DNA from: Clostridium sp. CAG:302
GTDB taxonomy: Bacteria > Bacillota_I > Bacilli_A > RF39 > UBA660
Direction of reading: 5' to 3'
Assembly: GCA_000431795.1 (NCBI GenBank)
Contig: FR887371.1
Coordinates: forward strand, 14,837-78,836
DNA: 64,000 nt
The notes below the pieces were generated by a model that did not search any database, had not been told where the DNA came from, and saw nothing but the letters and a program-made list of their open reading frames with translations. The position numbers and the translations under genes were made by a program. How positions within the stretch are numbered: the stretch's first letter is position 1; the number at the start of each line of letters is the position of its first letter. Positions 33,117 through 54,901 of the stretch are shown piece after piece.

Positions 33117-34078
33117 TAATTCTTTTTTATTTTAAATATAAAATTAATAATACCATACTGCTTTTTTAATAACAACTTATATATAATTTTTCGATTTTTA
33201 TCCAATTGTGACAAATAACTATTACTTTTAAAATTTGGAAAATTATCATTCATATAACATAATAACTTATCAATAGTTTCTAATTTTATATTCTTATCTG
33301 CTTCAGATCTAATTATTCTAACAATAGCGGATATATATATATGATCAATAGCCAAAAACTCTATAATTTCCTTATTATCATCATACATAGAGCTTTTTAA
33401 TATACTATCAAAAGCTTCTAAAATCTCAAGATTTCTTAAAACATTAGAATTATTCATCGTTGATCCTTCTCTTATTAAATAATCATACAAAGGTTCATTT
33501 ACATACCCAATCCTATTTGCCTTACATATTACATTAATAGAAAAATCAAAATCTTCATACCATACTTTACTTCTAAAAGATAGGTCATCAAGAATAGATT
33601 TTTTATATATTTTATTCCATACTGCTTTTTTTCCCAACAAAGCATTAATTTTATTATCTTCATAATTAATATGTTCTAAATCTATTTTTTTATTTTTATA
33701 ATCTTCACTAACATTATAATTTCCACATATAACTATATCCAAATCATCATCTACAGCTTTTTTATATAGTTTTTCAAACATTTGAGGTTCAACAAAATCA
33801 TCTGAATCAACATAACCAATATACTTTCCATTAGCTTTTGATAATCCATAATTTCTTGCAGAGCCTTGTCCTCCATTTTCTGTTATATATGATTTTATAT
33901 TTTTATATTTCTTAGCATAATCATCAATGATTTTTTGACTATTATCTTTTGAGCCATCATTAACAACTATTATTTCAATATCTTTAAGTGTTTGTGAGAC
34001 CAAACTTTTTAAACATTTATCAATATATTTTTCCACTCCATACACAGGAACTATTACACTAACACTATATTTTATCAT
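33116..34078 (-). CDS. GT2 glycosyltransferase
   Basis: Motifs VSVIVPVYGVEKYI, VNDGSKDNS and VDSDDF. Confidence 0.85.
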   Translation of the reverse strand: MIKYSVSVIVPVYGVEKYIDKCLKSLVSQTLKDIEIIVVNDGSKDNSQKIIDDYAKKYKNIKSYITENGGQGSARNYGLSKANGKYIGYVDSDDFVEPQMFEKLYKKAVDDDLDIVICGNYNVSEDYKNKKIDLEHINYEDNKINALLGKKAVWNKIYKKSILDDLSFRSKVWYEDFDFSINVICKANRIGYVNEPLYDYLIREGSTMNNSNVLRNLEILEAFDSILKSSMYDDNKEIIEFLAIDHIYISAIVRIIRSEADKNIKLETIDKLLCYMNDNFPNFKSNSYLSQLDKNRKIIYKLLLKKQYGIINFIFKIKKN

Positions 34079-35208
34079 TATTTTTCATCTCCAATCATTT
34101 TTTCAATATTTTTTATTTGGCTTTCGATAGAAAAATTCTTTGAATAACAAATAGCTTCTCTGCTAAATTTATTATACAATTTAGTATCAGCCATCAATAA
34201 TTCTATTTTACTTACAAATTCTTCAATATTATTAGCTATAAATCCACATTGCTCATCATTAGATATTTCTAGTGCTCCACCAACATTTGTAGAAACAAAT
34301 GGTACACCTAAAGTAATAGCTTCCACAAATATTGTCGGAAAGCCTTCACTATAAGAGCAACCTATCACTATATGTGCATTCTTAATATATGGATATGGAT
34401 TTTTTTGATATCCAAGTATATCAATATATTTTTCAATTTTTAATTCAGAAATTCTCTTATTCATTTGCTCCAACAAATCACCTTTTCCAATAAATTGCAT
34501 TTTAAAATCATATCCAGCATCAACTAGTTTTTTAGCAACTTCAATTGCAAATAAAGGATTTTTATTGTTATCAAATCTATTGATAAATAAAATTGTCTTC
34601 TTTTTATTTTTCACTTCAAAACTTGTAGACTTATCTATTATATTTTGTATATTAAATCCATTGTTAATAAGAACTATTTTATTCTTATATTCGGGAAAAA
34701 CTTCTAATAGTGATTTCTTTGTATTATTAGAAATTGCTACAATTTTATTTACATTTTTAAAGCTTTTCTTTTGAGCAATATAATTTAGTTTATCATTATT
34801 CAAATCATAAACATCACCATGAACCCAAGCATAAGTTTTACACTTTTTATCAAGTAAAAAGGTAGGAATTAAATAATTAAAAGATATTTGCATATCATAA
34901 TTATTTTTTATATATTTTTTCCTTAAATAATAAGGAAAAACATATAAAAGAATCTTATATAAAATTTTTTTTAAAATACTATCATTATCAGCATCAATTA
35001 TAGGTTCAAGTAAAGTTACATTATCATTAATTTCTTCATTATTAATATTAGTATGCCAATACTCAATAATATCAATATCATACCTATTTTTATCTAAATT
35101 ATTTACTATATTAGCAAGCACTCTTTCAGCACCACCTCCGTAAGTAAATGACCAAATTATAAATAATATCTTTTTCTTTTTCATTTTTAACATCCTATTC
35201 AAATTCAA
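34078..35208 (-). CDS. GT4 (GT-B) glycosyltransferase
   Basis: Motifs GGAERVL and SYSEGFPTIFVEAITLGVP. Confidence 0.8.
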   Translation of the reverse strand: MNLNRMLKMKKKKILFIIWSFTYGGGAERVLANIVNNLDKNRYDIDIIEYWHTNINNEEINDNVTLLEPIIDADNDSILKKILYKILLYVFPYYLRKKYIKNNYDMQISFNYLIPTFLLDKKCKTYAWVHGDVYDLNNDKLNYIAQKKSFKNVNKIVAISNNTKKSLLEVFPEYKNKIVLINNGFNIQNIIDKSTSFEVKNKKKTILFINRFDNNKNPLFAIEVAKKLVDAGYDFKMQFIGKGDLLEQMNKRISELKIEKYIDILGYQKNPYPYIKNAHIVIGCSYSEGFPTIFVEAITLGVPFVSTNVGGALEISNDEQCGFIANNIEEFVSKIELLMADTKLYNKFSREAICYSKNFSIESQIKNIEKMIGDEK

Positions 35209-36250
35209 CTGTTTCCTTTACATCATTATTTATTTCATATGGAAAATCATATAAATAATCTTTTAATTTTTCTTCAATAATTCTACTCTCTTCCAGATAC
35301 TCTTTTTTTCTAAACAATTGTGTGTTCTTAATTGATATATCAGGATTAAATCTTGATTTTTTATTTACATGATCTTTCTCAGTAAAGCCCAAAAATTTTG
35401 TTATTTCTTTTACTTTATTTTCATAATCATAAATTAGATCTTCAAACTTTACTCTATACACCTTATTTGAATTGCATTTTTTTTCACTTTCACGCATTTT
35501 TTTATAAAAATCACAAAATTCATTCACTTCTAATGGAAAAGGTACACATAATTGTCTTGCTTGCCATATATACTTATTAATAATAAATACATCTCTAGGA
35601 TCTCTTTCAACTACTATTACTCTTAATTTATCATCAAAATAATTATTTACTCTAAATAAATTAAATGGTAATAGGAATTGATCTAATATAATATTTTCTT
35701 TACCTTTAGCTATTTCTTTAATTATCTTATATATATATTCATTTGAATACTTATAAAATTCTTTATCTTTAATATATGAAATTCTCATTCCATCGGAATA
35801 TTTAAGTACTTTATTAAATCTAATCTTATTCAAAGTAAACATTTTTAGTGGCTTTCTAATCAACAATTTAATAAACATTTTTGCATTAACTTCTTCATGC
35901 ATATACCAATATCCAGAATAATTAAATTGTTGAATATTTTTTATAAAATCATCAGTTATTTTCATAAAGTTAGGACTAATAATTTTTTTATAATTTCCTA
36001 CCCACCAATATTTTTTATCGTATAATTTCTTCATTTGTAGTTCAAAACTTCTTATAGCCTCATCACTTCTAATTGCATTATTACCTATTAATAATTTATC
36101 TTCTAAGTCGAAAAGTCCATTCGGACAATGTAATAATACATATTCATAACTCTTATATTCATTTTGACAATCCTTAAACTCTGCAACTAAATCCGTAATA
36201 GCAGAACTTCCACTTCCCATATAGCCAGTAGGAACTATGATTCTTTTCAT
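35195..36250 (-). CDS. Sulfotransferase-fold protein (putative PAPS-dependent)
   Basis: An N-terminal P-loop-like GYMGSGSSAITDL (5'-PSB-like), VVERDPRDVFI (3'-PB R.P.D motif) and the C-terminal VKFEDLIYDYENKVKEITKFLGF (the sulfotransferase-typical YEDL....FLG tail). Confidence 0.55.
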   Translation of the reverse strand: MKRIIVPTGYMGSGSSAITDLVAEFKDCQNEYKSYEYVLLHCPNGLFDLEDKLLIGNNAIRSDEAIRSFELQMKKLYDKKYWWVGNYKKIISPNFMKITDDFIKNIQQFNYSGYWYMHEEVNAKMFIKLLIRKPLKMFTLNKIRFNKVLKYSDGMRISYIKDKEFYKYSNEYIYKIIKEIAKGKENIILDQFLLPFNLFRVNNYFDDKLRVIVVERDPRDVFIINKYIWQARQLCVPFPLEVNEFCDFYKKMRESEKKCNSNKVYRVKFEDLIYDYENKVKEITKFLGFTEKDHVNKKSRFNPDISIKNTQLFRKKEYLEESRIIEEKLKDYLYDFPYEINNDVKETVEFE

Positions 36251-37719
36251 TTTTTATCACCTTTTCCAATCTTAAATTTAAACTTACTTAAAATAAATAT
36301 TAAATTATTATCTTTTGTCAATAACAAAACGCCAAAATATAAAATGATACAAGCGGCCACAATCAAGCAAAGATTTACAACAAAGCTCAAATTAAAAGTT
36401 CTGATTATTAATGAAAGTGGTATAAAAAGTATACCTATTATCAAATAAAGTAAATTTCTTTTTGTAAATATTTCTACATTTAAATTCATTTTTTTTCTTG
36501 CGTAAATATAATGACAAATGAATACAATAATTTCTGAAATACCTGTAGTTATCATTGCAGTTGAAGGATTCAAAATATCAAAAAAGACTAATAAATAATT
36601 CATAATCAAATTCAATGCTCCACAGCTAAGTGAAACTTTTAATATTCTATCCTCTCTATCATTTGGATACATAACCAAATTATTCATAACTGATTCTAGA
36701 CTAACAAATATCCTAACCATACTTGCAATCATAAGAGGAATAACCGCTGTAACATATTTTTCTCCTGCATATAATGCAATAATTTCTTTAGCAAGAACAA
36801 ATATACCAAAACACATTGGAACTATTATAAATAATAATGAAGAAATAGAATTATTTAATTTCTCTTCATACTTCTCCTTACCTTCATTTCTTAAAATATA
36901 TGACATTCTGGGAATTGATACAAATATTATAGAATAAGGAATAGAAGCTAATGTAGACACAACATAATAAGGAATATAATATAGTGTAACAGAAACATCA
37001 TCAACATATTTTCCAAGCATAACTTTATCAAGCTGACTATATAATAAATCAAGGTTAGAAATAATTAAAACCGCTATTAATGGTTTAATATATTTTTTAA
37101 GTTTAAATTCCGAAAAATCAAATTTAATTTTTTTCTTTGAATATATAAAACTAATTATATTATTTAATAATATAGTTAAGCAAACTATTATCGCATATAA
37201 AATAACATCATCAGGCTTTCTTACAAATAATAATAAAGCAATAAAATAAATAATCTTAACAATAACAGATTTTATAGTAATAAATTTATAATTTTCTAAA
37301 GCCTCATTAACAAATTCTACATAAAACACATTAGCAACTATTTGTATTATCATTATCATATATAATGATGTTGCTATCCCACTCGAAGAGAATATAACAT
37401 AAAGTAAATATATAATTAATACTAATATATTAGAAAAAAGAGAAATCAAAAACAAATTACTAAAAAGTTTAGAAGTAGCTTTTTTATCATTCCTAATTCT
37501 ACTAATTTCTCTAACTCCATAATTATAAACTCCAAAAGAGGCAAATGCTAAAAAAATCTGAAACTCAGATAATACTCTATTATAAGTTCCATATAAATTA
37601 ACATCTAACAATCTTACAATGTAAGGGCCTATTATTATAGGAATAACTATATTTACCAAACTAAGTATAGATTTATAAATTGTATTTTTAAATAAAGTAT
37701 TTTTCTTCATCTTAGGCAC
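36247..37719 (-). CDS. Wzx-type oligosaccharide flippase (MOP/PST family), copy 1
   Basis: 490 aa with about 12-14 TM helices. The N-terminus is typical of polysaccharide biosynthesis proteins. Confidence 0.7.
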   Translation of the reverse strand: MPKMKKNTLFKNTIYKSILSLVNIVIPIIIGPYIVRLLDVNLYGTYNRVLSEFQIFLAFASFGVYNYGVREISRIRNDKKATSKLFSNLFLISLFSNILVLIIYLLYVIFSSSGIATSLYMIMIIQIVANVFYVEFVNEALENYKFITIKSVIVKIIYFIALLLFVRKPDDVILYAIIVCLTILLNNIISFIYSKKKIKFDFSEFKLKKYIKPLIAVLIISNLDLLYSQLDKVMLGKYVDDVSVTLYYIPYYVVSTLASIPYSIIFVSIPRMSYILRNEGKEKYEEKLNNSISSLLFIIVPMCFGIFVLAKEIIALYAGEKYVTAVIPLMIASMVRIFVSLESVMNNLVMYPNDREDRILKVSLSCGALNLIMNYLLVFFDILNPSTAMITTGISEIIVFICHYIYARKKMNLNVEIFTKRNLLYLIIGILFIPLSLIIRTFNLSFVVNLCLIVAACIILYFGVLLLTKDNNLIFILSKFKFKIGKGDKK

Positions 37720-37788: not shown

Positions 37789-39600
37789 TTACAAATAATA
37801 TTCTTTAATACTTTCTAATAAATAATCATTTTCTTCTTTAGATTTAATAGCTATTCTAATATATTCATTATCATCAAAACCATTTTTACCATTAAGTACT
37901 TTAATTAATATCTTTTTACTATCTAAAAGATATTCTGCTATTTCTTCTGCTTTACCTTTATTTAATTTAATCATAAAATAGTTAGCATCAGATTTATAAA
38001 CATTTAATTCTTTTATTTCTAATAATTTATTATAGAATCTATTTCTTTCTTCTTTTATCTTGTTACATCCAATAACATAATCTTTTTTATAAATAGAAAT
38101 AATTTGTAAAAAGTATTCTGCAAATGAATTAATATTCCATACAGGTAAATTCTTATTAATAATATCCAAATATTTTTTATTACCACTTGCAAGTACTCCA
38201 AGTCTAAGGCCAGGCACACCATAAGATTTACTAATACTCTTAATAACAATCAAATTAGAATATTTATTTAATATATCATCATTGATTAAAGTATAATTAT
38301 CATCAGCAAAGTCAATAAAAGATTCATCAAATATAACTTGTTTATTCTTTTCACTAGCAGTATCTAACAACTTAATAGTTTCATCATAAGTCAAATGAGA
38401 ACCACTAGGATTATCTGGAGATATAACTATCAAAGTATCAACTTTATCTAACACTTTAATTAATTCATCCAAAGATAATCTATAGTCATTATCTTTACTA
38501 TTTATATATAAAATATCATTATCCGGAAAACATCTTACATACTCGTTAAATGATGGAATAGTAAGAGCAATTTTTTTATTAGTAACATATCTTAGATTAT
38601 TAATAAGCTCTGCTGCCCCATTGCCAATTAAAATGTTTTCTTCACTAACATTATCAAACATTCTAGAAGCACATATTCTTTCTATTTTTTGACCAGAAGG
38701 ATAATTAAATAAAAGTTCATTATAAAAATACTTCATTTTATCTATCATTTTATCAGTAGGAAAATAAGGATTAACTAAATAACAATAATCTTTAATACCA
38801 TTAAATCTCCAATATCCGCCAAATCTCTTATGAAATAATTCTAGTTTTTCTCTAGTACTTGGAGCAAATATAGCTTTAGCTATATCATAATCTTGACAAT
38901 CATCTATTTCATACCAATCTTCACCATTTAATTGTAAACCATGTAACTTAGCCTCTTTAAGTCCGCTAATAACCTTTAAAACAAGTTCATAATAATCATT
39001 ATTACCATAAGCTTTAATATAAGATTCTAAAAATGGTAAATAAAATCTTTCACTAAACTCCTTACTAAATTTATAAATATTAACTGTTTTATAGTACTTA
39101 TTTACATCACTATAATCAAAATCTTTCTTTTCTACAAATGAACTAATAGTATCGTCATCATTTAAAGTTACAACAGTACCATCCATCCATTCCTCATATT
39201 TAGCTACAACTGCCGCACTCTCATACTTAGAATTAACTAATTTTTTTACTATAGAAGTATCATATATCAAATCAGATTCCAAGAGTACAGTATCATCTTT
39301 AACCAAATAATCTTTTGCCAAATATAAAGAATATATATTATTAGTAGTATCATATATATCATTATTTATATAAGTAATATTAATTTTCTTATCAAGTTCT
39401 TTTTCTTCAATATATTCTTTTACATTTTCACCTTTATAACCAAGTACAATAATAAAATCTTTAATATCAGCTTCAATTAAAGCATCTATTGCTCTTTCTA
39501 ATAAAGTTTTACCATGTATATTAAGCATACATTTAGTATTATTTTTAGTATATTTACCAAGTCTAGAGCCTTTACCAGCTGCTAACATAATTGCTTGCAT
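37789..39600 (-). CDS. Bifunctional fusion: LicC-like nucleotidyltransferase plus class I/II PLP-dependent aminotransferase/decarboxylase (HisC/CobD-like)
   Basis: The N-terminal MQAIMLAAGKGSRLG is the NTP-transferase signature. The C-terminal half carries VISPDNPSGS, DESFIDF and SISKSYGVPGLRLG (the PLP-lysine motif S.SK..G..G.R.G). Confidence 0.7.
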   Translation of the reverse strand: MQAIMLAAGKGSRLGKYTKNNTKCMLNIHGKTLLERAIDALIEADIKDFIIVLGYKGENVKEYIEEKELDKKINITYINNDIYDTTNNIYSLYLAKDYLVKDDTVLLESDLIYDTSIVKKLVNSKYESAAVVAKYEEWMDGTVVTLNDDDTISSFVEKKDFDYSDVNKYYKTVNIYKFSKEFSERFYLPFLESYIKAYGNNDYYELVLKVISGLKEAKLHGLQLNGEDWYEIDDCQDYDIAKAIFAPSTREKLELFHKRFGGYWRFNGIKDYCYLVNPYFPTDKMIDKMKYFYNELLFNYPSGQKIERICASRMFDNVSEENILIGNGAAELINNLRYVTNKKIALTIPSFNEYVRCFPDNDILYINSKDNDYRLSLDELIKVLDKVDTLIVISPDNPSGSHLTYDETIKLLDTASEKNKQVIFDESFIDFADDNYTLINDDILNKYSNLIVIKSISKSYGVPGLRLGVLASGNKKYLDIINKNLPVWNINSFAEYFLQIISIYKKDYVIGCNKIKEERNRFYNKLLEIKELNVYKSDANYFMIKLNKGKAEEIAEYLLDSKKILIKVLNGKNGFDDNEYIRIAIKSKEENDYLLESIKEYYL

Positions 39601-39683: not shown

Positions 39684-41072
39684 TTACCTCACTTTACATT
39701 TTATTTTAGAACAATTATCAATTGTTTTTCTTCCAACAGAATCATAATATACATTATATTTTTCTACATCGGATAATTTATAACAATTTCTACCATCATA
39801 AATTCTAGGACTTGCCATTAACTCTTCATATCTGGATATATCATATTCTTTAATCATAGGCCATTCAGTCATAATAAGAACAGCATCAGTATCCATAATA
39901 GTACTATCAATATCAGTAAAATAACTAATACTTCCTACTACACCATCATCTTCTAATTTATATGAAATTCTTTTTTTAAAGCTTTCTATTGATATTGGAT
40001 CATAAGCTTTAATTACCGCACCAGCATCCAATAATAATTCAATATTATATATAGAAGGAGCTTCTCTTAAATCATCAGTACCAGGTTTAAAAGTTAAACC
40101 AAGTACAGCTATATTTTTACCTTTTAGATTACCAAAATCACCTAATAACTTTTCATATAATTTAATTTTTTGACTTTCATTAACATCAATACAAGCCTTA
40201 ACAGTTCTAAGTTCTGCACCAACTTGTGAACTCAAATAATGAAGAGCTTTAGTATCTTTGGGAAAACAGCTTCCGCCATAACCTATTCCAGCATTTAAAA
40301 ATTTATTGCCTATTCTAGAATCAAATCCCATTCCCTTTGATACATCTTCAATATTTGCACCAAGCTTCTCACATAAGTTTGCGATTTCATTAATATAAGA
40401 AATTTTTAATGCCAAGAAATCATTAGAAGCATACTTAATCATTTCTGCACTTCTTCTATTCGTAGATAATAAAGGCACATTATATGGTTCTTTAGTTAAT
40501 GGTTCATACATTCTTAGTAATACCTCTTCTGCTTCCTTACATTCAGTACCAATTACAATTCTTGAAGCATAAAGAGTATCCCTCACTGCAGTACCCTGAG
40601 CTAAAAATTCTGGATTACTAGCAACATTAATGTTAATTCCATCTCTAACATTATTTTTTAAGTATCTTTCAACTTCATCATTAGTACCAATAGGTACAGT
40701 AGATTTAACAACCACTACTACATCTTTTTCTACTGATTTAGCAATTTGTTCACACACACCATAAACATAATCTAAATTAGCAGATCCGTCTCTTCTTTCA
40801 GGAGTACCAACGCCTATTATAATAACATCTGCATCTTTATATGCCTTCTTATAATCGGTAGTATAAATAAGCCTATTACTATTTTTTTGCATAAGTTCTT
40901 CTAAACCTTGCTCATAAATAGGACTTATACCACTTCTCATCTTTTCTATTTTCTTTTCATCAATATCAACACAAGTAACATTATGTCCAATATTAGCTAA
41001 TGCCACTCCTGTTACCAACCCTACATATCCTGTTCCAGCTACTGCTATTTTCACTTCTATTACCTCCATCAT
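39684..41072 (-). CDS. ugd: UDP-glucose 6-dehydrogenase
   Basis: IAVAGTGYVGLV Rossmann motif and the catalytic GGSCFPKD motif. Confidence 0.9.
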   Translation of the reverse strand: MMEVIEVKIAVAGTGYVGLVTGVALANIGHNVTCVDIDEKKIEKMRSGISPIYEQGLEELMQKNSNRLIYTTDYKKAYKDADVIIIGVGTPERRDGSANLDYVYGVCEQIAKSVEKDVVVVVKSTVPIGTNDEVERYLKNNVRDGININVASNPEFLAQGTAVRDTLYASRIVIGTECKEAEEVLLRMYEPLTKEPYNVPLLSTNRRSAEMIKYASNDFLALKISYINEIANLCEKLGANIEDVSKGMGFDSRIGNKFLNAGIGYGGSCFPKDTKALHYLSSQVGAELRTVKACIDVNESQKIKLYEKLLGDFGNLKGKNIAVLGLTFKPGTDDLREAPSIYNIELLLDAGAVIKAYDPISIESFKKRISYKLEDDGVVGSISYFTDIDSTIMDTDAVLIMTEWPMIKEYDISRYEELMASPRIYDGRNCYKLSDVEKYNVYYDSVGRKTIDNCSKIKCKVR

Positions 41073-43208: not shown

Positions 43209-44610
43209 TTCTTCTTTCTCCTTTTAGTATTGTTTTTTTATCATTAGTAGTAAGATAATCTATCCAACCATCGGTAGGAATGAAATTTTTATTATATTTT
43301 TCCTCACTATTTATTCCATTTTGATCAATAAATTTATATTCCATTAATGAAGATATTTTAAATTTTTTTAATTTGTATCCCTCATTAATATATTTAATTT
43401 TTTTAGGATCAAACCCCATTATTTTGCAAATAGACCTATCCATATTTAATTGATTAAAGCTAGCTACTATTAGTCCGACTTCTTTATTCGATGGAATAAG
43501 TGGGCCTTCTTTTTCACCAGAAATAATCATATCCGCAACATTAAAAATAATTCTCTTTTTATTATTAGATAAAACACCATTTTTATCAGAATATAATAAT
43601 ATTTTATTTATATCAAGTATAGTTCTCCATATTGTATCATTTCCATACCAACTTCCCTCTTGAAATCTTTCTTTATGAGTTAAAACCATCAATTTATAAA
43701 ATACACCATTTATAAGGTAAATTATTTTGCTATGTGTATAAGAATAATTCTTAGCAACAGAACGACAATATTTAATAAAACTACTTTCTGGATATTCATC
43801 ACCATGACTAGCAACACTACCATTCCTATGATGTGGTAAATACTCTTTTTTACTATTCACACCAACAAAGTTTTTCATAGAGGCAGTGATACCAGCTTTT
43901 CTATGACATTTTGGCTTTGGAACATTAATTATAACATCAGCATCAAGAATATCTTTAGAAATTAAATATTCATGTTTTCCTTGACAATGATGACTATGCA
44001 TATACTTTAAATTGTAATTTGTAATAGCATACTTTTTATAATATTCATCAGTTTCAACCAAAGAACTATTTTCTCCAATATCGACTACAGTACATTCAAT
44101 TTCTGGATTACTATTCTTTCTAAAATCTTTTAATTCAACCTTATAATTAAAATCATTATATTTTTTTATTGCCTCTTCTAAATTATATAACTTTATAACT
44201 TCAGCAAAATTGCATTCTTGTACAGGAGCATCACCAACGATAATACTACCAGTACCATTTAAAGCAATTATTGTATAATCAATAATTGGTCTAATTACAG
44301 AAAAGTTAGTTATTAATGAATCGGTATTACCATCCAAAGATTCATTAATATGTTTCACTAAATTAGGTTTTATCACTACTTTATTATTTTTTTTAATAAA
44401 ATCACCAAAAGGATTCCAATTTTTTTTACCAATATTCCCTTTATCAAGCCCCATTTGAATAAAAAGTCTACGAACACAATCGTATATATTAGAATCACTC
44501 TTAATATCAATGTTTAATCCCTCTGGATACACTGTTGATGGATTAAAAACATTGTCATTACTATATTTATATATTTTTGTATCAACAACATATACATCGT
44601 TATTTTTCAT
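43153..44610 (-). CDS. DUF362-domain protein
   Basis: KVVIKPNLV and KCHRKAGITASMKNFVG match the DUF362 signature. The last 56 nt overlap the epimerase start. Confidence 0.55.
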   Translation of the reverse strand: MKNNDVYVVDTKIYKYSNDNVFNPSTVYPEGLNIDIKSDSNIYDCVRRLFIQMGLDKGNIGKKNWNPFGDFIKKNNKVVIKPNLVKHINESLDGNTDSLITNFSVIRPIIDYTIIALNGTGSIIVGDAPVQECNFAEVIKLYNLEEAIKKYNDFNYKVELKDFRKNSNPEIECTVVDIGENSSLVETDEYYKKYAITNYNLKYMHSHHCQGKHEYLISKDILDADVIINVPKPKCHRKAGITASMKNFVGVNSKKEYLPHHRNGSVASHGDEYPESSFIKYCRSVAKNYSYTHSKIIYLINGVFYKLMVLTHKERFQEGSWYGNDTIWRTILDINKILLYSDKNGVLSNNKKRIIFNVADMIISGEKEGPLIPSNKEVGLIVASFNQLNMDRSICKIMGFDPKKIKYINEGYKLKKFKISSLMEYKFIDQNGINSEEKYNKNFIPTDGWIDYLTTNDKKTILKGERRNENIFYYRWSWVYWLYAY

Positions 44611-46111
44611 TGCTATTTTTCCTTTCCTTAATCATTTTTATTATATCATTAAAATCATTTCTAAATAAGATAATATTAACTAAAAGTACAAAGACTGTAA
44701 TTACTACAATAGTTATAACTGCCAAAATCACCCATTTAATATAAGTATCAATATTAATATTAATACAAAAAATTTGAAATAACATAACTATTAACATTTC
44801 AATAAATGAAACAATTATTATTTTTAAAGAATTAATAAACTTAGTTTCTAATATTTTTGTAGAACCATAGTATATAAACCCAAATGTTCTAATTGGCATA
44901 GATATTAAAGTACCAATAGCAACTCCTACTAAACCATATTTTTTAACTAGTAACACAGAAATTATTATATTAACCACTGGTTCTATAATAGAAAAAATCT
45001 TAGTTTCCTTAAAATGACCCTTAGCATATACAATAGTTGAATATGGATATCTTATAACAAAGAAAAACTCAGCAAAAACTAAAATATAGGCAAAAGTAGG
45101 AATAACATAATTAGCATCAACAAAATTTTTAGTATAAACTGAAACAAAAGGAACTATCAATATTAAAGTTGAAGCAAGCAATATTGTTGTCAATGTATAA
45201 AATATGAAAGAATACAAACTAAACTTATGTCTTACTTGTTCTGAATTCTGCGTAATTAGTGTTTTGCCAAAAAAAGCATCAATACCATTAGTTAAAGAGA
45301 CAATCAAAGCACGAATACCATTCGTAATCAAAGCATAAACTGAATATATTGAAATATTTGTTAAATTACTAAATATAGTTAATAAAATAACATCTATACT
45401 AGATTGCACAGTTGATGCAATATGATGAATTAGTCCATCCCATTGTTTATCAAATTTATAAGTTGAATTATTGTTTATTTTATAATTATACTTTTTGTTA
45501 AAATACATTCGCATTATAATCGGTTTAATTACATATATAATTGAACCTGCTAACTTTACACATTGAATATTACAATTTAGTTTTATCAAAATAACAATAA
45601 CAAGTAGGTTAACAATATAACCAATTGAATTTATATTATCAATAAAATAATTTTTTTGATCGGATTTCAAAAACAAATTATATGTCATTCCTAAATAATA
45701 TTCAGAAAAATATCCAATAGCAATAATTAATATTAATGATACGGTATATAAATATGAATAATTATTATTTATAAATCTTGGATATATGACACAAAGAAAC
45801 GAAATGTATGCTAAAAGAACATATGATATTCTTTTAAAAAATAAATTAGCTTTACCTAATATATTTCCAACCTCTTCTTTATTTTTTTCTACCAAAGGTT
45901 TATAAAGAGCATTTTTTATAACAGGTCCTATACCGCCTTCTAATAAAGAAATATAAGCTAAAAACTGTGCAATCGAAGAAATAAGGCCATTGACTTCAGA
46001 ACCAAATTTTTTTATTATCATTACAGGAACGATAAATCCATATACTATAGTAATTGCCTGATAAATAAACGAAGAAAGAATATTTTTAATTATAGTTTTT
46101 TTATTATTCAT
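44600..46111 (-). CDS. Wzx-type flippase (MOP superfamily), copy 2
   Basis: 503 aa with about 14 TM helices. Confidence 0.65.
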   Translation of the reverse strand: MNNKKTIIKNILSSFIYQAITIVYGFIVPVMIIKKFGSEVNGLISSIAQFLAYISLLEGGIGPVIKNALYKPLVEKNKEEVGNILGKANLFFKRISYVLLAYISFLCVIYPRFINNNYSYLYTVSLILIIAIGYFSEYYLGMTYNLFLKSDQKNYFIDNINSIGYIVNLLVIVILIKLNCNIQCVKLAGSIIYVIKPIIMRMYFNKKYNYKINNNSTYKFDKQWDGLIHHIASTVQSSIDVILLTIFSNLTNISIYSVYALITNGIRALIVSLTNGIDAFFGKTLITQNSEQVRHKFSLYSFIFYTLTTILLASTLILIVPFVSVYTKNFVDANYVIPTFAYILVFAEFFFVIRYPYSTIVYAKGHFKETKIFSIIEPVVNIIISVLLVKKYGLVGVAIGTLISMPIRTFGFIYYGSTKILETKFINSLKIIIVSFIEMLIVMLFQIFCININIDTYIKWVILAVITIVVITVFVLLVNIILFRNDFNDIIKMIKERKNSNEK

Positions 46112-46113
46112 AT

Positions 46114-47085
46114 CTAATCATTCCTTTTAGAAGGTAATTTAATTAAATCACCTATTTTTTTATCCCATTCTAATGGTTTAAACTCCTCATATCCATTTCC
46201 TGGATAAAAAGTCATTTCACCAAAATATAGTTTCCCATTAATTTCATACCAATCAACTCGTACAAAAGGAATATTATCGGACAAAATCTTTGAAAATTTT
46301 AACATTAAGTTATAGTTAAAAGGCTTTTTAATTTCTTTATTTGATGAAGGATAATGTCTTTCAAAAGGTAACTTGTTCCAATCTAAGTCAAAAAAAGTAA
46401 CCTTTAAACCATCTTTATACCGCTCACTACATGTAAAAGATAACTTAGGCTCTCCATCAAAACACATAAACTTATAATCAATTAACTCCTTATTTACATT
46501 ATCTTCCATATATTTTTCGATTATTATTTTAGGCTTAACATTCTTATACGGCCATTCCCTACCACAATAATAATAATTTCTTTTCAAAGAAGCATTGATT
46601 TTTTTTCTTGCAGAAACTATATCAAAATTACTTTTATTTCTACATATTGCTAACCCACCAGAATCATGATTACATTTAATTACAAATTGATTAGGTAATT
46701 TATCAAAATCAATATCATCAAATTTGTCATATACTCCAATTAAAGGTATTAGATATTCTTCACCTATTTTTTCTTTTATATACTCTCTAACTTCATATTT
46801 GTCTACCATCTTAGTATACTCTGGATTTTTATCATAGAGTTTTAACCATTGTAACTTTTCATTAAAAGTTTGTGGATTTTTTAAATTTAATTTATATCCC
46901 ATTTTATATTTAAAATATATCTTCAAATATGTTTTATCAGATAATATTTTTGAAAGTTTACTATTCATTACTCTTAACACAAGTTTTGATGGATTAAGTA
47001 AATAATACTTTAACTTTAACAATTTATTTTTCATTTTTCGCACCCATAAAGTAATCATAATATTTCTTATATATTGTATTAGCAT
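46114..47085 (-). CDS. TupA-like ATP-grasp amidoligase, copy 1
   Basis: NPQTFNEKLQWLKLYDKNPEYTKMVDKYEVREYI...FVIKCNHDSGG...YFGEMTF matches the ATPgrasp_TupA family. The likely true start is the Met at 47034. Confidence 0.75.
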   Translation of the reverse strand: MLIQYIRNIMITLWVRKMKNKLLKLKYYLLNPSKLVLRVMNSKLSKILSDKTYLKIYFKYKMGYKLNLKNPQTFNEKLQWLKLYDKNPEYTKMVDKYEVREYIKEKIGEEYLIPLIGVYDKFDDIDFDKLPNQFVIKCNHDSGGLAICRNKSNFDIVSARKKINASLKRNYYYCGREWPYKNVKPKIIIEKYMEDNVNKELIDYKFMCFDGEPKLSFTCSERYKDGLKVTFFDLDWNKLPFERHYPSSNKEIKKPFNYNLMLKFSKILSDNIPFVRVDWYEINGKLYFGEMTFYPGNGYEEFKPLEWDKKIGDLIKLPSKRND

Positions 47086-48124
47086 CTAGTTTCTTTCTTA
47101 TTTTCATTGCTTCTTTTTCTATATTTTCTCTGACACTATCATTTTCTATTAAGAATAATATTTTTGTCGCCAAAGTTTCGGCATCATCAACAGGTACCAA
47201 CAAACCGTTTTTACCATCAGCAATTAATTCTGACGGTCCGAATTTACAATCAGTAGAAATACAAGCAGTACTTGTAGCCATTGCCTCAATAAGTGCATTG
47301 GGCATCCCTTCATATCTAGAACTTAATACATATATTTTTGACTTTGCAACTTCAAAAATGGCATCTTGATTAGCACCACATAATATTACATTTTCACTTA
47401 AGCCAAGTTTATTTATTAATTCTTGCAATTTATTCTTTTCCAGACCATTGCCAAATATTTTTAATTTATATTCGGGATGTCTATTATATACTTCTTTAAA
47501 TGCATTTATTAATACATCAAAACCTTTTTGTTCATCTAGCCTTCCCATTGCAGTAATTACATTTTCTTTTTTTATTTTTGAATAATCAATTTCATAAACT
47601 TTTTTATTACTAATTGCATTAGGAATTACAACAGACTGTTTTTGAACACTATTTTGATAACATTCTTTAATTCCATTTGTCTGAAAAATAAAACCAGTGC
47701 ATTTTTTAGCAGCATATTTAGATAAGACTTTACTAATATAACTTCTTTCATTTATGTTGGCTCTCTCTGAGCCAATCAATACACATCCCTTTGGTTTAGA
47801 TAATTTTGCATATATTTCAGTTTGATAAAACATAGCAACAACAATTGTAGCATTAAGTTGTTTTAAATTATCTTTACAAAATTTATATCTTTCAATTATA
47901 GCACTGATTCTATTTTTCTTATTATTAATCATACTTACAACATTAATTCTTTTATCTAATTCATATGCATTATCTTTGTTATCAAACTTGATAATACTTA
48001 CATTATCTTCAGTATTGTTAACTATCCAATTACATAAAGAAGATACAACTCTTTCAGCACCACCAAATCCCAAAGAAGACATAATAAATACAATACTATT
48101 TTTTTTCATTTCTTTTACCGCCAA
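47024..48124 (-). CDS. GT4 glycosyltransferase
   Basis: Motifs GGAERVV, GRLDEQKG and SSRYEGMPNALIEAMA. Confidence 0.8.
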   Translation of the reverse strand: MAVKEMKKNSIVFIMSSLGFGGAERVVSSLCNWIVNNTEDNVSIIKFDNKDNAYELDKRINVVSMINNKKNRISAIIERYKFCKDNLKQLNATIVVAMFYQTEIYAKLSKPKGCVLIGSERANINERSYISKVLSKYAAKKCTGFIFQTNGIKECYQNSVQKQSVVIPNAISNKKVYEIDYSKIKKENVITAMGRLDEQKGFDVLINAFKEVYNRHPEYKLKIFGNGLEKNKLQELINKLGLSENVILCGANQDAIFEVAKSKIYVLSSRYEGMPNALIEAMATSTACISTDCKFGPSELIADGKNGLLVPVDDAETLATKILFLIENDSVRENIEKEAMKIRKKLDANTIYKKYYDYFMGAKNEK

Positions 48125-49010
48125 TTTTAATATAATTTCCTAATATAGTTTCGTATTCCTTTGGTTCAAACTTCGTAAAACCAGCAAAATGAGAAAATGT
48201 TAATTCACCTATATATATTTTATCGTTGCATAAATATAAATCCACTCTTAAACAAGGAATGTTCTTACTTAAAGACTTTGCTATATCAATCATTTCATCT
48301 AATTGTTTTGGCCTTTCAAATATAACATCAGATGTATTATAAATACATTTTAAATTTAATTTATTAAATTTGATATCATAATAATCATTAAATCTATTTT
48401 TTTCTTTATTGCCATAACAAACAGATATAATTTTAGGAACTCCATTAAAGCAAAAGAAATTATATTCTTTTAAATCTTCTTTATTCTTATTTTCCATATA
48501 TTTTTCAATTATTATTCTAGGTTTAACATTTTTGTATGGCCACTCTCTATGAACATAAAAATATTTTCTTTTAAGATATTTATTAATTTTTTTTCTTGCC
48601 TTTTTTAAGTCTAATTGTTTTTTATCTTTACAAATTACAAGTCCACCAGAATCATGAGTACATTTCATTACAAACTGATTGGGTAATTTATCAAAATCTA
48701 TCTCATCAAATTTATCATAAATACCGATTAAAGGAATTAAATATTTTTCTCCAGCTTTATCTTTTATATATTCTCTCGCTTCATATTTATCAACCATTTT
48801 TGTATATATTGGATTCCTATCATACAATTTTAACCACTGAAGTTTTTCACTTAGCAATTTAGGATTTTTTAAATCTAATTTTTTACCAATAATAAGCCTA
48901 TATTTCCATTTTAAATATATTTTATCTGGAACAAAAAAGAAAAAGTTTTTATTCATCATGCAAACCAATGTATCTTTAGGATGACATATATATTTAATTA
49001 TTTTTTTCAT
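48096..49010 (-). CDS. TupA-like ATP-grasp amidoligase, copy 2
   Basis: NPKLLSEKLQWLKLYDRNPIYTKMVDKYEAREYI...FVMKCTHDSGG. The N-terminal half is highly similar to copy 1 and the C-terminal half has diverged. Confidence 0.75.
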   Translation of the reverse strand: MKKIIKYICHPKDTLVCMMNKNFFFFVPDKIYLKWKYRLIIGKKLDLKNPKLLSEKLQWLKLYDRNPIYTKMVDKYEAREYIKDKAGEKYLIPLIGIYDKFDEIDFDKLPNQFVMKCTHDSGGLVICKDKKQLDLKKARKKINKYLKRKYFYVHREWPYKNVKPRIIIEKYMENKNKEDLKEYNFFCFNGVPKIISVCYGNKEKNRFNDYYDIKFNKLNLKCIYNTSDVIFERPKQLDEMIDIAKSLSKNIPCLRVDLYLCNDKIYIGELTFSHFAGFTKFEPKEYETILGNYIKIGGKRNEKK

Positions 49011-50085
49011 TATTACACACTTCCTTCATAAAATCAAACCATTTATTAACAATTTTATCACAATTATATTCTTGCATTTTATCTCTTGCATTTTTAGACA
49101 ATTGTCTACATATATTATTATCTTCAATAAGTCTACAAATTGAAGAAGTTAATTCTTCCTTGTTATTATTTTCTACGAGTAAACCATTTTTATTACCATC
49201 AATTAACTCCTTTGGCCCACCACAAGGACAATTCGTAGAAATACAAGGAAGTCCGACTGCCATAGCTTCCATAAGAGCATTTGGCATTCCTTCATATTTT
49301 GAGGATAAAATAAAACCTTTTTTATCTTTCAAAATATTATCAATATCATCTACATTTCCACACAATTTGACATTATTATTAAGTTTATTATCCTTTATAT
49401 ACATACTAAGTTCATTTTTTAAACTACCTTCACCATAAATAAGTAATTTATAGTTTGGATATTTCTTAATAACATCTTTAAAACTCTCTATTAAAAGTAT
49501 TTGATTCTTTTGTTCATTTAATCTACCAACATTAATAAATTCAGTACTTTTATATCCAACATATTTAGTTTTCAAGAATCTATCATCTACAGGATTAGCA
49601 ATAACTATAGATTTATCTTGAATTTTTTTGCAGAAATAGTCGCGTGCTTCATCTGTTTGAAAAACGAATCCATCGGCTCTTTTATATAAAAACTTCATTA
49701 TGGTTCTACTTTTCAAAGATGCATATTCTATTTTTGGATCATTTCTATCAGAAATAATTACTGGAGATTTAATAAATGGCTTCAATATAAGTAGTCTATA
49801 ACTTGGCTCAGGTAAAAAACCTAAAATAATATCAGGATCAATTTCTTTTATATAGTCTTTTAATCTCTTTAAATATATAATATTCTTTACTAATGGATTC
49901 TTATTACCATCAAAATTTTTCAAACTAAAGAGTTTAATACTTTTATCAAGACTATATTCTACTTTTTCATCAGTAGTAGTAATAATAATAACTTCATTTT
50001 TTTCTACTAGTTTATTAGATAATGTAGCAACAACTCTCTCAGCTCCACCTTTTCTCAAATTACCTATATAAAATAATATTTTCAT
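48994..50085 (-). CDS. GT4 glycosyltransferase (paralogue of 47024-48124)
   Basis: Motifs GGAERVV, GRLNEQKN and SSKYEGMPNALMEAMA. Confidence 0.8.
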   Translation of the reverse strand: MKILFYIGNLRKGGAERVVATLSNKLVEKNEVIIITTTDEKVEYSLDKSIKLFSLKNFDGNKNPLVKNIIYLKRLKDYIKEIDPDIILGFLPEPSYRLLILKPFIKSPVIISDRNDPKIEYASLKSRTIMKFLYKRADGFVFQTDEARDYFCKKIQDKSIVIANPVDDRFLKTKYVGYKSTEFINVGRLNEQKNQILLIESFKDVIKKYPNYKLLIYGEGSLKNELSMYIKDNKLNNNVKLCGNVDDIDNILKDKKGFILSSKYEGMPNALMEAMAVGLPCISTNCPCGGPKELIDGNKNGLLVENNNKEELTSSICRLIEDNNICRQLSKNARDKMQEYNCDKIVNKWFDFMKEVCNNEKNN

Positions 50086-50093
50086 ACTTCCTC

Positions 50094-51158
50094 CTAAAAT
50101 AGTGTATAATTAACATAAACAGAATTTGTAAATATCTGATATATATAAAATAAAAATAATGAAATATAAAATATTGGATACATGAATTTACGATATTTTA
50201 AATCCAAAACCTCCAAATTATTTGGAATTAAAATTATAAATGAATAAGTAAAATATAAAACTATTCTTGCAACCAGCCCTTGAGTAGTTGAAAGAATTTG
50301 AAATGGTAAAGCTAATAATAACATACCGACAAAGTATTTATTACTATTTTTGTTTATATCAAATTTTTTATTTATAAAGCATACACCAACTATTATTAAA
50401 AATATCAATAAAAGCATTGTATATCCACTACCACTAGTATCACGATAGTCAAGATACTGACTGTAAATTAATTCAGTTATAATATTAAGAATAGGATTTT
50501 TAATTATAAATAAAACTATGCATAAACTCATAAAACGAAATATTTTATTAGTAGTAAATTTAATATGTTTAAATACTGGTAAAATTAAAAATACCAATGA
50601 TGTTTTATGGAACAAACTAGCAATCATAACCATTGTAATATACCAAAGTAAACTCTTTCTATCCTTAGCTAACAATAATGGAAAAGCACACAATAAAACT
50701 GATATAGCTAAGCATTGTCTTAATGTACAAGTATAATATACAAAATAATTAAAAGTTATAAATAAGAAAACACTTGCAAAATAATCTTTGGAATAATTTT
50801 TAATAAAGTTATATATGCCTATCATAGAAAGAATTGAAATAATAAATACATAAAATCTAAAATCATAAAATATAAAGCTTATAAATTTAGTAAGCATTTT
50901 AAAGCCCAACTCAAAATCATAATGAAAATATAAATACTCTATAGTACTATTTTTAGCAGCTACAAAAAATTTATAATAATTAATCATGTCAAGTCCAACC
51001 TTAGGACCACGCAATCCCAAAAATAGAGTTAAAATAATAACTATTATTAGAAGATATTGTTTATTGTTTTTGATATTAATCCCAAATATTTTAAATATTA
51101 AGGATAATAAAGTCAAAGAAAGCAATAATATTATATATTCCAAAACAATCACCTCCAT
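50094..51158 (-). CDS. EpsG/Wzy-type polysaccharide polymerase
   Basis: 354 aa with about 10 TM helices. Size and topology are EpsG-family-like. Confidence 0.5.
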   Translation of the reverse strand: MEVIVLEYIILLLSLTLLSLIFKIFGINIKNNKQYLLIIVIILTLFLGLRGPKVGLDMINYYKFFVAAKNSTIEYLYFHYDFELGFKMLTKFISFIFYDFRFYVFIISILSMIGIYNFIKNYSKDYFASVFLFITFNYFVYYTCTLRQCLAISVLLCAFPLLLAKDRKSLLWYITMVMIASLFHKTSLVFLILPVFKHIKFTTNKIFRFMSLCIVLFIIKNPILNIITELIYSQYLDYRDTSGSGYTMLLLIFLIIVGVCFINKKFDINKNSNKYFVGMLLLALPFQILSTTQGLVARIVLYFTYSFIILIPNNLEVLDLKYRKFMYPIFYISLFLFYIYQIFTNSVYVNYTLF

Positions 51159-51167
51159 ATTGTAACA

Positions 51168-52202: not shown

Positions 52203-52208
52203 ATATAT

Positions 52209-53318: not shown

Positions 53319-53337
53319 CTTAACATTACTCCCTACA

Positions 53338-54789: not shown

Positions 54790-54863
54790 AAAATCACTGT
54801 CCTACCAATAAAAAGTATAACACATTTCAAAGCCATAGTCTAGGTTAAAAAGACTTTTTTACC

Positions 54864-54899: not shown

Positions 54900-54901
54900 A
54901 G

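Follow-up and report, generated by a model that had tools for sequence, protein, structure and literature searches.

A fused LicC/PntC-like nucleotidyltransferase and CobD-like PLP enzyme as a candidate source of CDP-amino alcohols in a polysaccharide locus of Clostridium sp. CAG:302

Introduction

What would a single protein make that joins a nucleotidyltransferase to a PLP enzyme and is encoded among polysaccharide genes, and what would become of its product? Such a gene lies on the minus strand at positions 37,789-39,600 of the window, the whole 64,000-nucleotide stretch of Clostridium sp. CAG:302 DNA analysed here; the parts of this gene, the cassette genes, ugd and the TupA-like ligases located below are on the same strand. 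The initial annotation proposed that the encoded enzyme makes, and possibly nucleotide-activates, an amino-alcohol phosphate, and linked it to a nearby ugd gene and two TupA-like ligases that would amidate uronic acids with such amines. The well-studied forms of phosphocholine and phosphoethanolamine decoration rely on imported choline or on phosphatidylethanolamine. One account (PMC11982090) describes the route by which such groups reach glycoconjugates as little known.

Results

The open reading frame is real and both of its halves are intact. It encodes 603 amino acids and occupies exactly the interval first reported, and Pfam divides it into NTP_transferase/NTP_transf_3 (PF00483/PF12804, residues 3-182) and Aminotran_1_2 (PF00155, residues 318-598), in agreement with the two domains originally assigned. 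The motifs quoted at that time are all found in the translation: LAAGKGSRLG (residues 6-15), SPDNPSGS (394-401) and SISKSYGVPGLRLG (455-468), the last including Lys458. Both halves are under purifying selection: between the window and a 97% relative (L006), dN/dS is 0.073 for the whole gene, 0.126 for the transferase domain and 0.052 for the PLP domain. Degeneracy of the PLP lysine or of the NTP-binding residues was checked against 114 family members, about 30-53% identical, in which conservation of each catalytic position reaches 90% or more; the window copy carries the consensus at every one of them. These positions are G9, G11, R13, K23, E108, D110, K171, Y204, E205, E231 and D233 in the transferase half, and N327, D425, F428, S455, K458 and R582 in the PLP half.

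The N-terminal LicC/PntC-like nucleotidyltransferase domain (residues 1-245; 38,866-39,600) has LicC (1jyk) as its first-ranked solved match (E 3.8e-14, residues 2-240), followed by the PntC domain of Tde1415 (E 1.7e-9). It has the CTP-binding signature, the metal-binding acidic residues and the acidic pair for amine contact that are features of LicC and PntC. The signature, GxGxR...K, runs from R13 (93% conserved) to K23 (94%) at 39,532-39,564, and the equivalent of K23 is essential in FrbH (K38A) and corresponds to Lys25 of Tde-PntC (PMC6697681). In Tde-PntC the amine-contacting residues are Glu104, which meets the primary amine, and Glu196, which makes a second contact (PMC6697681). Alignment to 1jyk and 6pd1 pairs these with Glu108 (39,277-39,279), inside a LLESDLIYD motif common to the fusion and Tde-PntC, and with Glu205 (in YYE; 38,986-38,988), whereas LicC has Asp at both positions (Asp105 and Asp192). 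Both glutamates are 94% conserved in the family, and Glu205 is kept in methyltransferase-fused members too. We therefore regard the transferase half as a predicted LicC/PntC-type cytidylyltransferase with a Glu amine pair, as found in the enzyme with a preference for small primary amines.

The C-terminal CobD/SMUL_1544-like class I/II PLP domain (residues ~255-603; 37,792-38,838) matches the solved structure 6oux with an E-value of 7e-42 in a single-sequence search. We took 6oux to be SMUL_1544 on the identical molecule name, and SMUL_1544 reportedly acts on serine phosphate, a finding ascribed to Keller et al. in 2019. When a family profile is used instead, 6oux scores 260 bits, 3ftb 210 and CobD 171 and 167, with all HisC structures at or below 155; of the top four solved matches, three are decarboxylases and the other is uncharacterised. 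At the residue level, 31 family members were compared with 15 bona fide HisC and with a small set of CobD controls, namely three genomic sequences alongside the solved structures. At six positions the family has the CobD state, unlike the 15 HisC (D271, E353, S427, F428, S455 and W488). Phe428, in DESF (38,317-38,319), falls at the last position of DE(A/S)(Y/F), which is Phe in the fusion family, CobD, SMUL_1544 and 3ftb and Tyr in 15/15 of the HisC. The PLP-binding Lys458 (SISKSYG; 38,227-38,229) is 91% conserved and is equivalent to the invariant Lys of the CobD and HisC controls. The equivalog models for both enzymes give scores far under their cut-offs (CobD TIGR01140, 151.9 bits against 290.55; HisC TIGR01141, 156.8 bits against 276.55), and in an unrooted tree of PLP domains the fusion family forms a clade apart from both HisC and the three genomic CobD; because the tree is unrooted and the family is separate from both, CobD cannot be named as its sister group in preference to HisC. 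Signature residues and the ranking of solved structures nonetheless appear to group the PLP half with decarboxylases of phospho-amino acids and not with HisC transaminases. The chemistry had been considered unpredictable from the sequence, and signatures of decarboxylase type make it more predictable than that.

The earlier observation that no phosphonate genes lie nearby extends to the genome. In the whole assembly (91.6% complete), PEP mutase PF13714 peaked at 19.6 bits (cut-off 31.5), TIGR02320 and TIGR03297 had no match, and no phosphonopyruvate decarboxylase was found; no PEP mutase exceeded the cut-off in five related fusion-bearing genomes, and among the family loci examined neither enzyme was seen in the parts annotated with Pfam. 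Because these six related genomes lack PEP mutase, we do not consider the fusion a phosphonate route. The fusion that makes CMP-2-aminoethylphosphonate, offered at first as a similar precedent, is a poorer parallel than supposed: the PLP domain of Tde1415 (6pd1) is of class V, and only the N-terminal domain matches.

The fusion belongs to a very large, uncharacterised family with members in no fewer than 589 species genomes of many phyla, ranging over Clostridia, Treponema, Bacteroidales, Campylobacterales, Saccharibacteria and a methanogen relative. Cultured organisms that carry it include Clostridium culturomicium, Ancylomarina euxinus and Parabacteroides sp. PM6-13. A locus scan that started from a 7-sequence alignment covered 87 loci. 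LicD or TagF-like genes flank the fusion in 54 of these 87, at a distance of no more than 2.5 kb in 46, and many abut it on the same strand. Among 18 genomes without a flanking LicD or TagF, 14 carry one or the other elsewhere; the fusion-bearing genomes that lack both are those of loci L053, L091, L092 and L093. Rosetta-stone fusions take the form transferase-PLP-LicD, TagF-like-PLP and transferase-PLP-methyltransferase (four examples, polyphyletic), and methyltransferases sometimes adjoin family members as well as join them. In L015, a family member with a fused methyltransferase sits between flagellin genes with two TagF-like genes flanking it, and in L007 a LicD gene adjoins a stand-alone relative of the transferase domain (53% identical). 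The real partners of the fusion family are LicD and TagF-like phosphotransferases, which indicates phosphodiester decoration rather than amidation. An unknown protein of about 300 amino acids beside distant family members was rejected as a common partner, the candidates being mutually dissimilar.

Downstream of the fusion, the window has a Wzx-type flippase (36,247-37,719; Pfam), a sulfotransferase-fold protein (35,195-36,250; marginal Pfam match) and a GT4 glycosyltransferase (34,078-35,208). The first two are conserved cassette members, with orthologues in L002 and L003 (69% identical and in the same position for the flippase, 80% for the sulfotransferase-fold protein), two loci whose fusions are 82% identical to that of the window. 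The GT4 gene is missing a LicD domain: its sister-species orthologue in L002 is a LicD-GT4 fusion of 651 aa (LicD at residues 26-242, GT4 at 293-623), and G008 has a LicD frame of 653 aa at the equivalent place, whereas GT4 stands alone in the window and in L006. Sister species thus have an attaching enzyme: LicD belongs to this cassette in L002, L003 and G008, and in G038 a TagF gene adjoins the fusion. In the assembly that contains the window, at 91.6% completeness, Pfam searches and custom HMMs run on all six frames found no LicD or TagF-like gene, and no LicD was found in the 97% relative either; a marginal match to the TagF HMM in this genome (E 0.005) is a UDP-GlcNAc 2-epimerase. The window lineage has lost LicD, though sister species keep it in the same cassette, and its fusion is still constrained.

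Whether the sulfotransferase-fold neighbour could be the CDP-alcohol transferase or kinase that is lacking was considered, and it was rejected as an obligate partner: three related genomes have it but no fusion, and it co-occurs with LicD in L002 and L003. Its best solved relative is no better than E 0.017, its Atlas name is sulfotransferase only, and the genome contains no APS kinase. No kinase is evident within the cassette. SerC is absent from six related fusion-bearing genomes, so the canonical source of phosphoserine is missing there. A promoter and terminator scan over 33-47.5 kb found sites no more numerous than in shuffled sequence and is therefore uninformative on operon limits.

Immediately upstream of the fusion lies ugd, for UDP-glucose 6-dehydrogenase (39,684-41,072; Pfam), and also upstream are a uronate epimerase-like gene and, at 46,114-49,010, two TupA-like ATP-grasp ligases identified by Pfam (46,114-47,085 and 48,096-49,010) with a GT4 gene between them. 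This adjacent locus has its own EpsG polymerase and its own flippase (44,600-46,111). The latter, a 503-aa protein without a Pfam match, was tried as a transferase and rejected: it is a multi-pass membrane protein, 25-43% identical to genes in the flippase position of other loci, and is therefore a second Wzx. Querying the PDB with the sequence of a TupA-like ligase returned no match. The genes on which the proposed ugd/TupA link was built are present as stated; their co-occurrence with the fusion is not conserved. TupA-like genes occur in only 2 of the 87 family loci, and L002 and L003 have neither ugd nor a TupA-like gene near the fusion. Elsewhere, ugd is the immediate neighbour of the fusion in L061, L085 and L091; in L091, Ugd and the fusion sit within a block of precursor genes, and in L085, an unrelated Alistipes locus, they occur with a TupA-like ligase and without LicD or TagF within 8 kb, both of which are present elsewhere in that genome. 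In the window, the link looks like two polysaccharide loci side by side, with the TupA/ugd locus abutting the cassette of the fusion and ugd probably the final gene of that uronic-acid locus.

Discussion

Our preferred reading, to which we assign a probability of about 0.6, is that the fusion uses CTP and O-phospho-L-serine to build a CDP-activated amino-alcohol phosphate, with CDP-ethanolamine the most likely product. The analysis supports the initial idea of one protein that both produces an amino-alcohol phosphate and activates it with a nucleotide; its substrate, product and order of steps are what we infer. The PLP domain would decarboxylate a phospho-amino acid in the manner of CobD and SMUL_1544, and the N-terminal domain would cytidylylate the amine phosphate in the manner of LicC and PntC. 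Decarboxylation might come before cytidylylation, following the logic of CobD and then LicC, or cytidylylation might first give CDP-serine for decarboxylation, following the logic of FrbH. Both a kinase and imported ethanolamine or choline would be dispensable. Across the wider family, the product would pass to a phosphotransferase of the LicD or TagF-like kind, which would put the phospho-amino alcohol on a surface glycan, and in some members a methyltransferase would tailor the amine.

The substrate of FrbH, 2-amino-4-phosphonobutyrate, is the C-P analogue of phosphoserine. FrbH, from the FR-900098 pathway of Streptomyces rubellomurinus, converts this compound and CTP to CMP-3-aminopropylphosphonate (PMC8007912, PMC6697681). 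By literature description, it is the closest characterised enzyme of this architecture: a MobA/LicC-type domain and a class I/II PLP decarboxylase in one polypeptide that turns CTP and an alpha-amino acid with a terminal phosphorus acid into a CMP-linked amino-alkyl product (PMC8007912, PMC6697681). The same two domain types share one chain in the fusion, with both the signature Lys and the PLP Lys. FrbH works on a phosphonate and belongs to an antibiotic cluster with PEP mutase, whereas the glycan loci that hold the fusion are in genomes lacking PEP mutase, and its proposed substrate is a phosphate ester. Tde1415 of Treponema denticola (PntC-AEPT; 6pd1/6pd2) likewise couples a LicC-like cytidylyltransferase to a PLP enzyme from which it receives its substrate, and has in common with the fusion a homologous transferase domain, the LLESDLIYD motif and the Glu pair. 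However, its PLP half is a class V aminotransferase, only residues 2-134 of the fusion match it, its pathway is a phosphonate one with PEP mutase, and the two types fall in separate Atlas clusters.

Other systems resemble the fusion in one half or in its setting. The phosphocholine pathway of Streptococcus pneumoniae and Haemophilus provides both LicC, the best solved match, and LicD, which abuts or is fused to family members; it differs in importing choline and needing the LicA kinase, where the PLP domain of the fusion would supply the phospho-amine, in the Asp/Asp rather than Glu/Glu pocket of LicC, and in that the window genome has no LicD. SMUL_1544 (6oux) and CobD (1lc5, 3fkd) are the best solved relatives of the PLP half and have DE(S/A)F and the other positions that distinguish it from HisC, but they are stand-alone enzymes of cobamide operons, whereas the fusion is joined to a transferase, lies in a polysaccharide locus and forms its own clade. 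In the type A flagellin glycan of Clostridioides difficile (FtaB/FtaC/FtaD), a phospho-amino compound is CMP-activated and N-methylated as a CDP conjugate, after which a TagF-like enzyme carries out the transfer; FtaC and FtaD follow a CDP-amino-acid logic in which the methyltransferase acts on the CDP conjugate (bioRxiv 10.64898/2026.02.12.704994). The Fta pathway retains the carboxylate, as CDP-threonine, and has no PLP decarboxylase. Finally, in the HS:2 capsule of Campylobacter jejuni, the PLP enzymes Cj1436 and Cj1437 make ethanolamine phosphate and serinol phosphate, which the TupA-like ligase Cj1438 attaches to Ugd-made glucuronate (PMC12409886). A PLP enzyme, Ugd and TupA-like genes all occur within 12 kb in the window; the Campylobacter pathway has no nucleotidyl activation and needs a HAD phosphatase, and none was seen among the window locus proteins scanned.

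Three other substrates would change the product. If the PLP domain were a transaminase like Cj1437, the C. jejuni enzyme that makes serinol phosphate (PMC12409886), it would convert DHAP to serinol phosphate and the fusion would yield CDP-serinol. DHAP is always supplied by glycolysis, whereas phosphoserine is not obviously available in the six related small genomes without SerC, and the NCBIfam HisC and CobD scores of the fusion are nearly equal. We consider a transaminase improbable on account of the Phe that replaces the HisC Tyr (15/15) together with five other CobD-type states, the three decarboxylases among the best four solved matches, and the fact that FrbH, alike in its two-domain architecture by literature description, is a decarboxylase. 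True CobD chemistry, from O-phospho-L-threonine to CDP-(R)-1-amino-2-propanol, has in its favour that the solved CobD, ranked third and fourth, are threonine-phosphate decarboxylases and that the head groups of the C. difficile Fta pathway are phosphothreonine-based. The serine-phosphate enzyme 6oux leads them widely, at 260 bits versus 171, none of the cassettes examined has a threonine kinase or ThrH-like phosphotransferase, and the substrate of FrbH matches phosphoserine and not phosphothreonine, which together leave this substrate with perhaps a one-in-ten sort of standing. Least probable is a phosphonate substrate, 2-aminoethylphosphonate (AEP) imported from the gut or made by the cell, giving CMP-AEP as in Tde1415. 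The Glu pair is the same as in the AEP-specific PntC, and directly upstream of the 82% orthologue in L003 is an ABC importer whose best NCBIfam match, below cut-off, is the putative AEP transporter PhnS2/PhnU2; but the window genome has no PhnU2-like permease, in addition to lacking PEP mutase and phosphonopyruvate decarboxylase as its five relatives lack PEP mutase, and import of AEP would leave a conserved and constrained PLP domain without a job.

Even if phosphoserine is the substrate, the fate of the product in this lineage can be read in several ways. Because LicD has been lost here, the TupA-like ligases may be alternative users of the amine phosphate: they would consume it, or its CDP form, to amidate glucuronate or galacturonate, as Cj1438 does with ethanolamine phosphate. 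The precedent of Cj1438C with Cj1436/Cj1437 (PMC12409886), the ugd, uronate epimerase-like and TupA genes directly upstream, the combination of Ugd, fusion and TupA-like ligase in Alistipes, and continued constraint on the fusion where three sister genomes have LicD in the same cassette and the window has none all point this way. We nevertheless judge it rather unlikely, given the rarity of TupA-like genes in family loci, the placement of those in the window within a separate locus that has a flippase and a polymerase to itself, and the LicD and TagF genes elsewhere in the Alistipes genome, while in L091 Ugd and the fusion are merely part of a precursor-gene block. Moreover, the Campylobacter route has no need of a cytidylyltransferase, yet the transferase half is constrained here (dN/dS 0.126), and no Cj1435-like HAD phosphatase was found among the locus proteins scanned. 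A doubtful extension is that the window lineage has found a new use for the product, in one of two forms. TupA-made uronamides might be nucleotide-activated according to the logic of the cobamide nucleotide loop, from amide through NMP activation to phosphodiester, which would yield a phosphodiester-bridged uronamide polymer; or an unrecognised family of CDP-alcohol phosphotransferases might have replaced LicD/TagF, which would cover the window lineage and the genomes of L053, L091, L092 and L093 as well.

If synthesis of CDP-ethanolamine from phosphoserine is correct, many gut and environmental microbes would make donors of the CDP-ethanolamine type from a central metabolite with a single protein, and such donors would place zwitterionic phospho-amine groups on surface and flagellin glycans. 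The fusion family would then be the phosphate-ester counterpart of FrbH, and a gene whose products carry only the database name 'aminotransferase class I/II' would have a simple explanation. The window itself is a natural experiment, in which the enzyme that would make the donor has been kept and the enzyme that attaches it has been lost.

The fusion gene and its family

The 603-aa ORF lies on the minus strand and occupies exactly 37789-39600 of the window, the span given in the initial annotation, and all three motifs quoted there are found in it. Pfam places a nucleotidyltransferase domain at residues 3-182 (PF00483/PF12804) and a class I/II aminotransferase-fold domain at residues 318-598 (PF00155); the observation is confirmed, and the function first proposed for it is partly supported. 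The host is an uncultured gut member of the Bacilli with a small genome of low GC (assembly 1.24 Mb, 91.6% complete), and polysaccharide-synthesis genes run on one strand throughout from ~21.9 kb to 56 kb of the window.

Among 1.84 billion representative proteins searched, 633 match at E<=1e-30; the top 150 are mostly complete fusions ~600 aa long, with identities down to ~30%. In one-genome-per-species contigs, relatives are encoded in at least 589 species; carriers at 43-58% identity include Clostridia, Lachnospiraceae, many Treponema, Bacteroidales, Campylobacterales and Aquificales, as well as Saccharibacteria, Melainabacteria and one Methanomassiliicoccaceae archaeon. Within the host's own order the full-length fusion is patchily distributed (4 of 121 genomes, the host's own counted), so in surface loci it is an accessory gene. 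Over 114 family members, conservation of the catalytic residues is 90% or more in both halves, and the window copy matches the consensus at every one. The Atlas clusters that hold these proteins carry generic names only and are distinct from the class V 'AEP aminotransferase' fusions. The window gene belongs to a widespread and apparently unstudied fusion family. One orthologue, in the complete-chromosome MAG CP091726.1 (L008, 10001-12533), is broken into ORFs of 112 and 181 aa with its neighbours broken likewise, which looks like assembly frameshift errors rather than decay.

Predicted chemistry of the two halves

NCBIfam models leave the protein almost tied between HisC (156.8 bits, curated cut-off 276.55) and CobD (151.9 bits, curated cut-off 290.55), far under the cut-off in both cases. 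As a single sequence its PLP half matches 6oux at E 7e-42, far before CobD and HisC; this entry is identified as SMUL_1544 by its molecule name, 'threonine phosphate decarboxylase-like enzyme', which is also the annotation of that protein. A profile built from 26 family members gives the same first place: 6oux scores 260 bits, followed by 3ftb (210 bits, deposited as a histidinol-phosphate aminotransferase, a putative function), the CobD structures 1lc5 (171) and 3fkd (167), and the best HisC structure (155). SMUL_1544 is reportedly, from the work of Keller et al., a serine-phosphate decarboxylase for norcobamides. When 31 family members were compared with 15 HisC (over the TIGR01141 cut-off) and 3 CobD (1 over the TIGR01140 cut-off), six positions had the CobD state in the family and another state in every, or almost every, HisC: 271 D, 353 E, 427 S/T, 428 F (Tyr in all 15 HisC), 455 S and 488 W. 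Maximum-likelihood analysis recovered three separate, well-supported groups (fusion family 100/100, HisC 100/99, CobD 97/85); the fusion family is its own clade, which is all that this unrooted tree shows.

LicC (1jyk, E 3.8e-14, residues 2-240) is the best solved relative of the transferase half, followed by the Tde1415 PntC domain (6pd1, E 1.7e-9); the latter and the transferase half share LLESDLIYD. In the AEP-specific Tde-PntC two acidic residues, Glu104 and Glu196, contact the amine, and choline-specific LicC has the smaller Asp105 and Asp192 at these positions (Rice et al., PMC6697681). By alignment the corresponding residues of the fusion are E108 and E205, each 94% Glu in the family; from this pair the substrate is predicted to be a small phospho compound with a primary amine. 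The two Glu are also kept in methyltransferase-fused members, which would be consistent with methylation after activation, as with FtaC, an enzyme that methylates CDP-threonine (bioRxiv 10.64898/2026.02.12.704994).

Partners of the family

Longer members carry a C-terminal SAM methyltransferase (4), a C-terminal LicD (1) or a TagF-like domain joined to the PLP half (1), and in another locus (L007) a LicD gene lies directly beside a free-standing relative of the transferase domain (53% identity). ORFs were called in 87 family loci and searched with seed proteins and HMMs derived from them: LicD is present in 24, a TagF-like gene in 36 and either in 54, with the partner at most 2.5 kb away in 46 of those 54. 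Many of these genes lie immediately next to the fusion and on its strand, 0-100 bp away. Among 18 genomes with no LicD or TagF within 8 kb of the fusion, 14 encode one elsewhere and 4 have neither. Taken together, the fused domains and the neighbouring genes point to a head group that is CDP-activated and then handed to glycans by phosphotransferases.

Other neighbours recur as well. An ornithine cyclodeaminase/mu-crystallin family gene comes directly after the fusion, abutting it, in 10 of the 87 loci, and an eleventh locus has it ~1 kb upstream (L011:11899-12849, L037, L040-L042 and L085 are among the eleven); no such gene occurs in the window. At L015:99-16619 a methyltransferase-fused member sits between two flagellin genes; two TagF-like genes, several glycosyltransferases and an Asp/Glu racemase flank it. 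The locus probably encodes a pathway for a flagellin-glycan head group like that of C. difficile type A.

Source of the substrate

The initial annotation saw no phosphonate genes nearby, and this holds genome-wide: in the window's own genome PEP mutase (PF13714, only 19.6 bits where the cut-off is 31.5; TIGR02320, no match) and phosphonopyruvate decarboxylase (TIGR03297) were not found. PEP mutase also exceeds its cut-off in none of five related fusion-carrying genomes and is missing from the family loci with annotated genes.

If the PLP half were instead a transaminase, DHAP would yield serinol phosphate and then CDP-serinol. The main point in favour of this route is that SerC, the phosphoserine aminotransferase, is absent from all six small fusion-carrying genomes (G000, the host's own, and G008, G038, G103, G122 and G123) and that no kinase is evident in the fusion cassette; we nevertheless consider it unlikely. 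Another possibility is that these reduced genomes import a phospho-amino acid, as hinted by a three-gene ABC importer at L003:6490-9807, directly upstream of an HTH-transferase gene and the 82% orthologue. Its best NCBIfam matches, under cut-off, are the putative 2-aminoethylphosphonate transporter components PhnS2/PhnU2, and it may take up a phospho-amine or phospho-amino-acid substrate; the window's genome has no PhnU2-like permease.

The cassette in the window lineage

The fusion cassette is common to the window and its sister species. At 82% identity to the window protein, L002 and G008 have an HTH-transferase regulator-like gene, the fusion, Wzx, a sulfotransferase-fold gene and then a LicD-GT4 fusion of ~650 aa (L002:15526-17481; G008:C29:9535-10185), and L003, at about 82%, has a separate LicD after the sulfotransferase-fold gene. 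A TagF-like gene abuts the fusion in G038 (59%) and lies 12 kb off in CAG:609 (77%). In the window and L006 (97%) the GT4 gene (34078-35208 in the window) is without the LicD domain, encoding 376 and 368 aa respectively, in what appears to be a clean loss, or simply an absence, of that domain. LicD is found in neither of these two genomes, and in the window's own no reading frame encodes a TagF-like protein. Yet between the same two genomes the fusion (dS 0.16) has a dN/dS of 0.073 overall, 0.126 in the transferase half and 0.052 in the PLP half, similar to its neighbours; it has been under purifying selection since they split, so some consumer of its product must remain.

Several further features accompany the cassette. 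In the sisters the fusion is preceded by a ~300-aa MarR-like winged helix and nucleotidyltransferase protein (L002:9791-10684; L003:9791-10702), whose nucleotidyltransferase domain and the N-terminus of the fusion share 40% identity across 120 aa; ugd stands there in the window. An NAGPA-type phosphodiester glycosidase gene (window 61270-62310), kept at 74-76% identity, directly precedes the HTH-transferase gene and fusion in L002, and in L003 the importer genes lie in between. The sulfotransferase-fold gene (window 35195-36250) is conserved in the cassette and occurs in three related genomes that have no fusion; APS kinase was not found in the window's genome, so a supply of PAPS is not evident.

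The initial annotation proposed that TupA-like ligases use the amine phosphate, citing ugd and two such ligases in the same locus. Upstream of the fusion lie ugd, a DUF3048 gene, an epimerase, a DUF362 gene and a second flippase, and further upstream an LCP gene, several GT4 genes, an EpsG polymerase and two pairs of GT4 and TupA-like ATP-grasp genes. These are a second, complete polysaccharide locus with its own flippase, set against the fusion's cassette and missing from the corresponding position in L002 and L003; its flippase, ligase pairs, polymerase, GT4 and LCP genes lie within 44600-56005. Use by the ligases is possible in the window lineage and has one independent echo, in an Alistipes locus (L085), but it is weakly supported: TupA occurs in only 2 of the 87 loci, a HAD phosphatase was not seen, and the Campylobacter scheme leaves the constrained transferase half without a role. 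In another family locus (L091) Ugd and the fusion end a block of nucleotide-sugar precursor genes, which suggests that Ugd adjacency reflects grouping of such genes.

A probable phosphate-ester variant of FrbH chemistry

2-Amino-4-phosphonobutyrate is the C-P analogue of O-phosphoserine. FrbH converts it, with CTP, to CMP-3-aminopropylphosphonate, using two domains, a cytidylyltransferase of the PF12804 family in which K38 is essential and a PLP-dependent decarboxylase with the aminotransferase fold (PMC6697681, PMC8007912), and in described architecture and chemistry is the closest characterised precedent of the fusion. Applied to phosphoserine, the same chemistry would give CDP-ethanolamine, and the fusion would be a phosphate-ester variant feeding Lic/TagF-type transfer. 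We consider it most likely that the family makes CDP-ethanolamine-type donors for glycan decoration, to which the window adds a lineage without the attaching enzyme in which the donor enzyme is still under selection.
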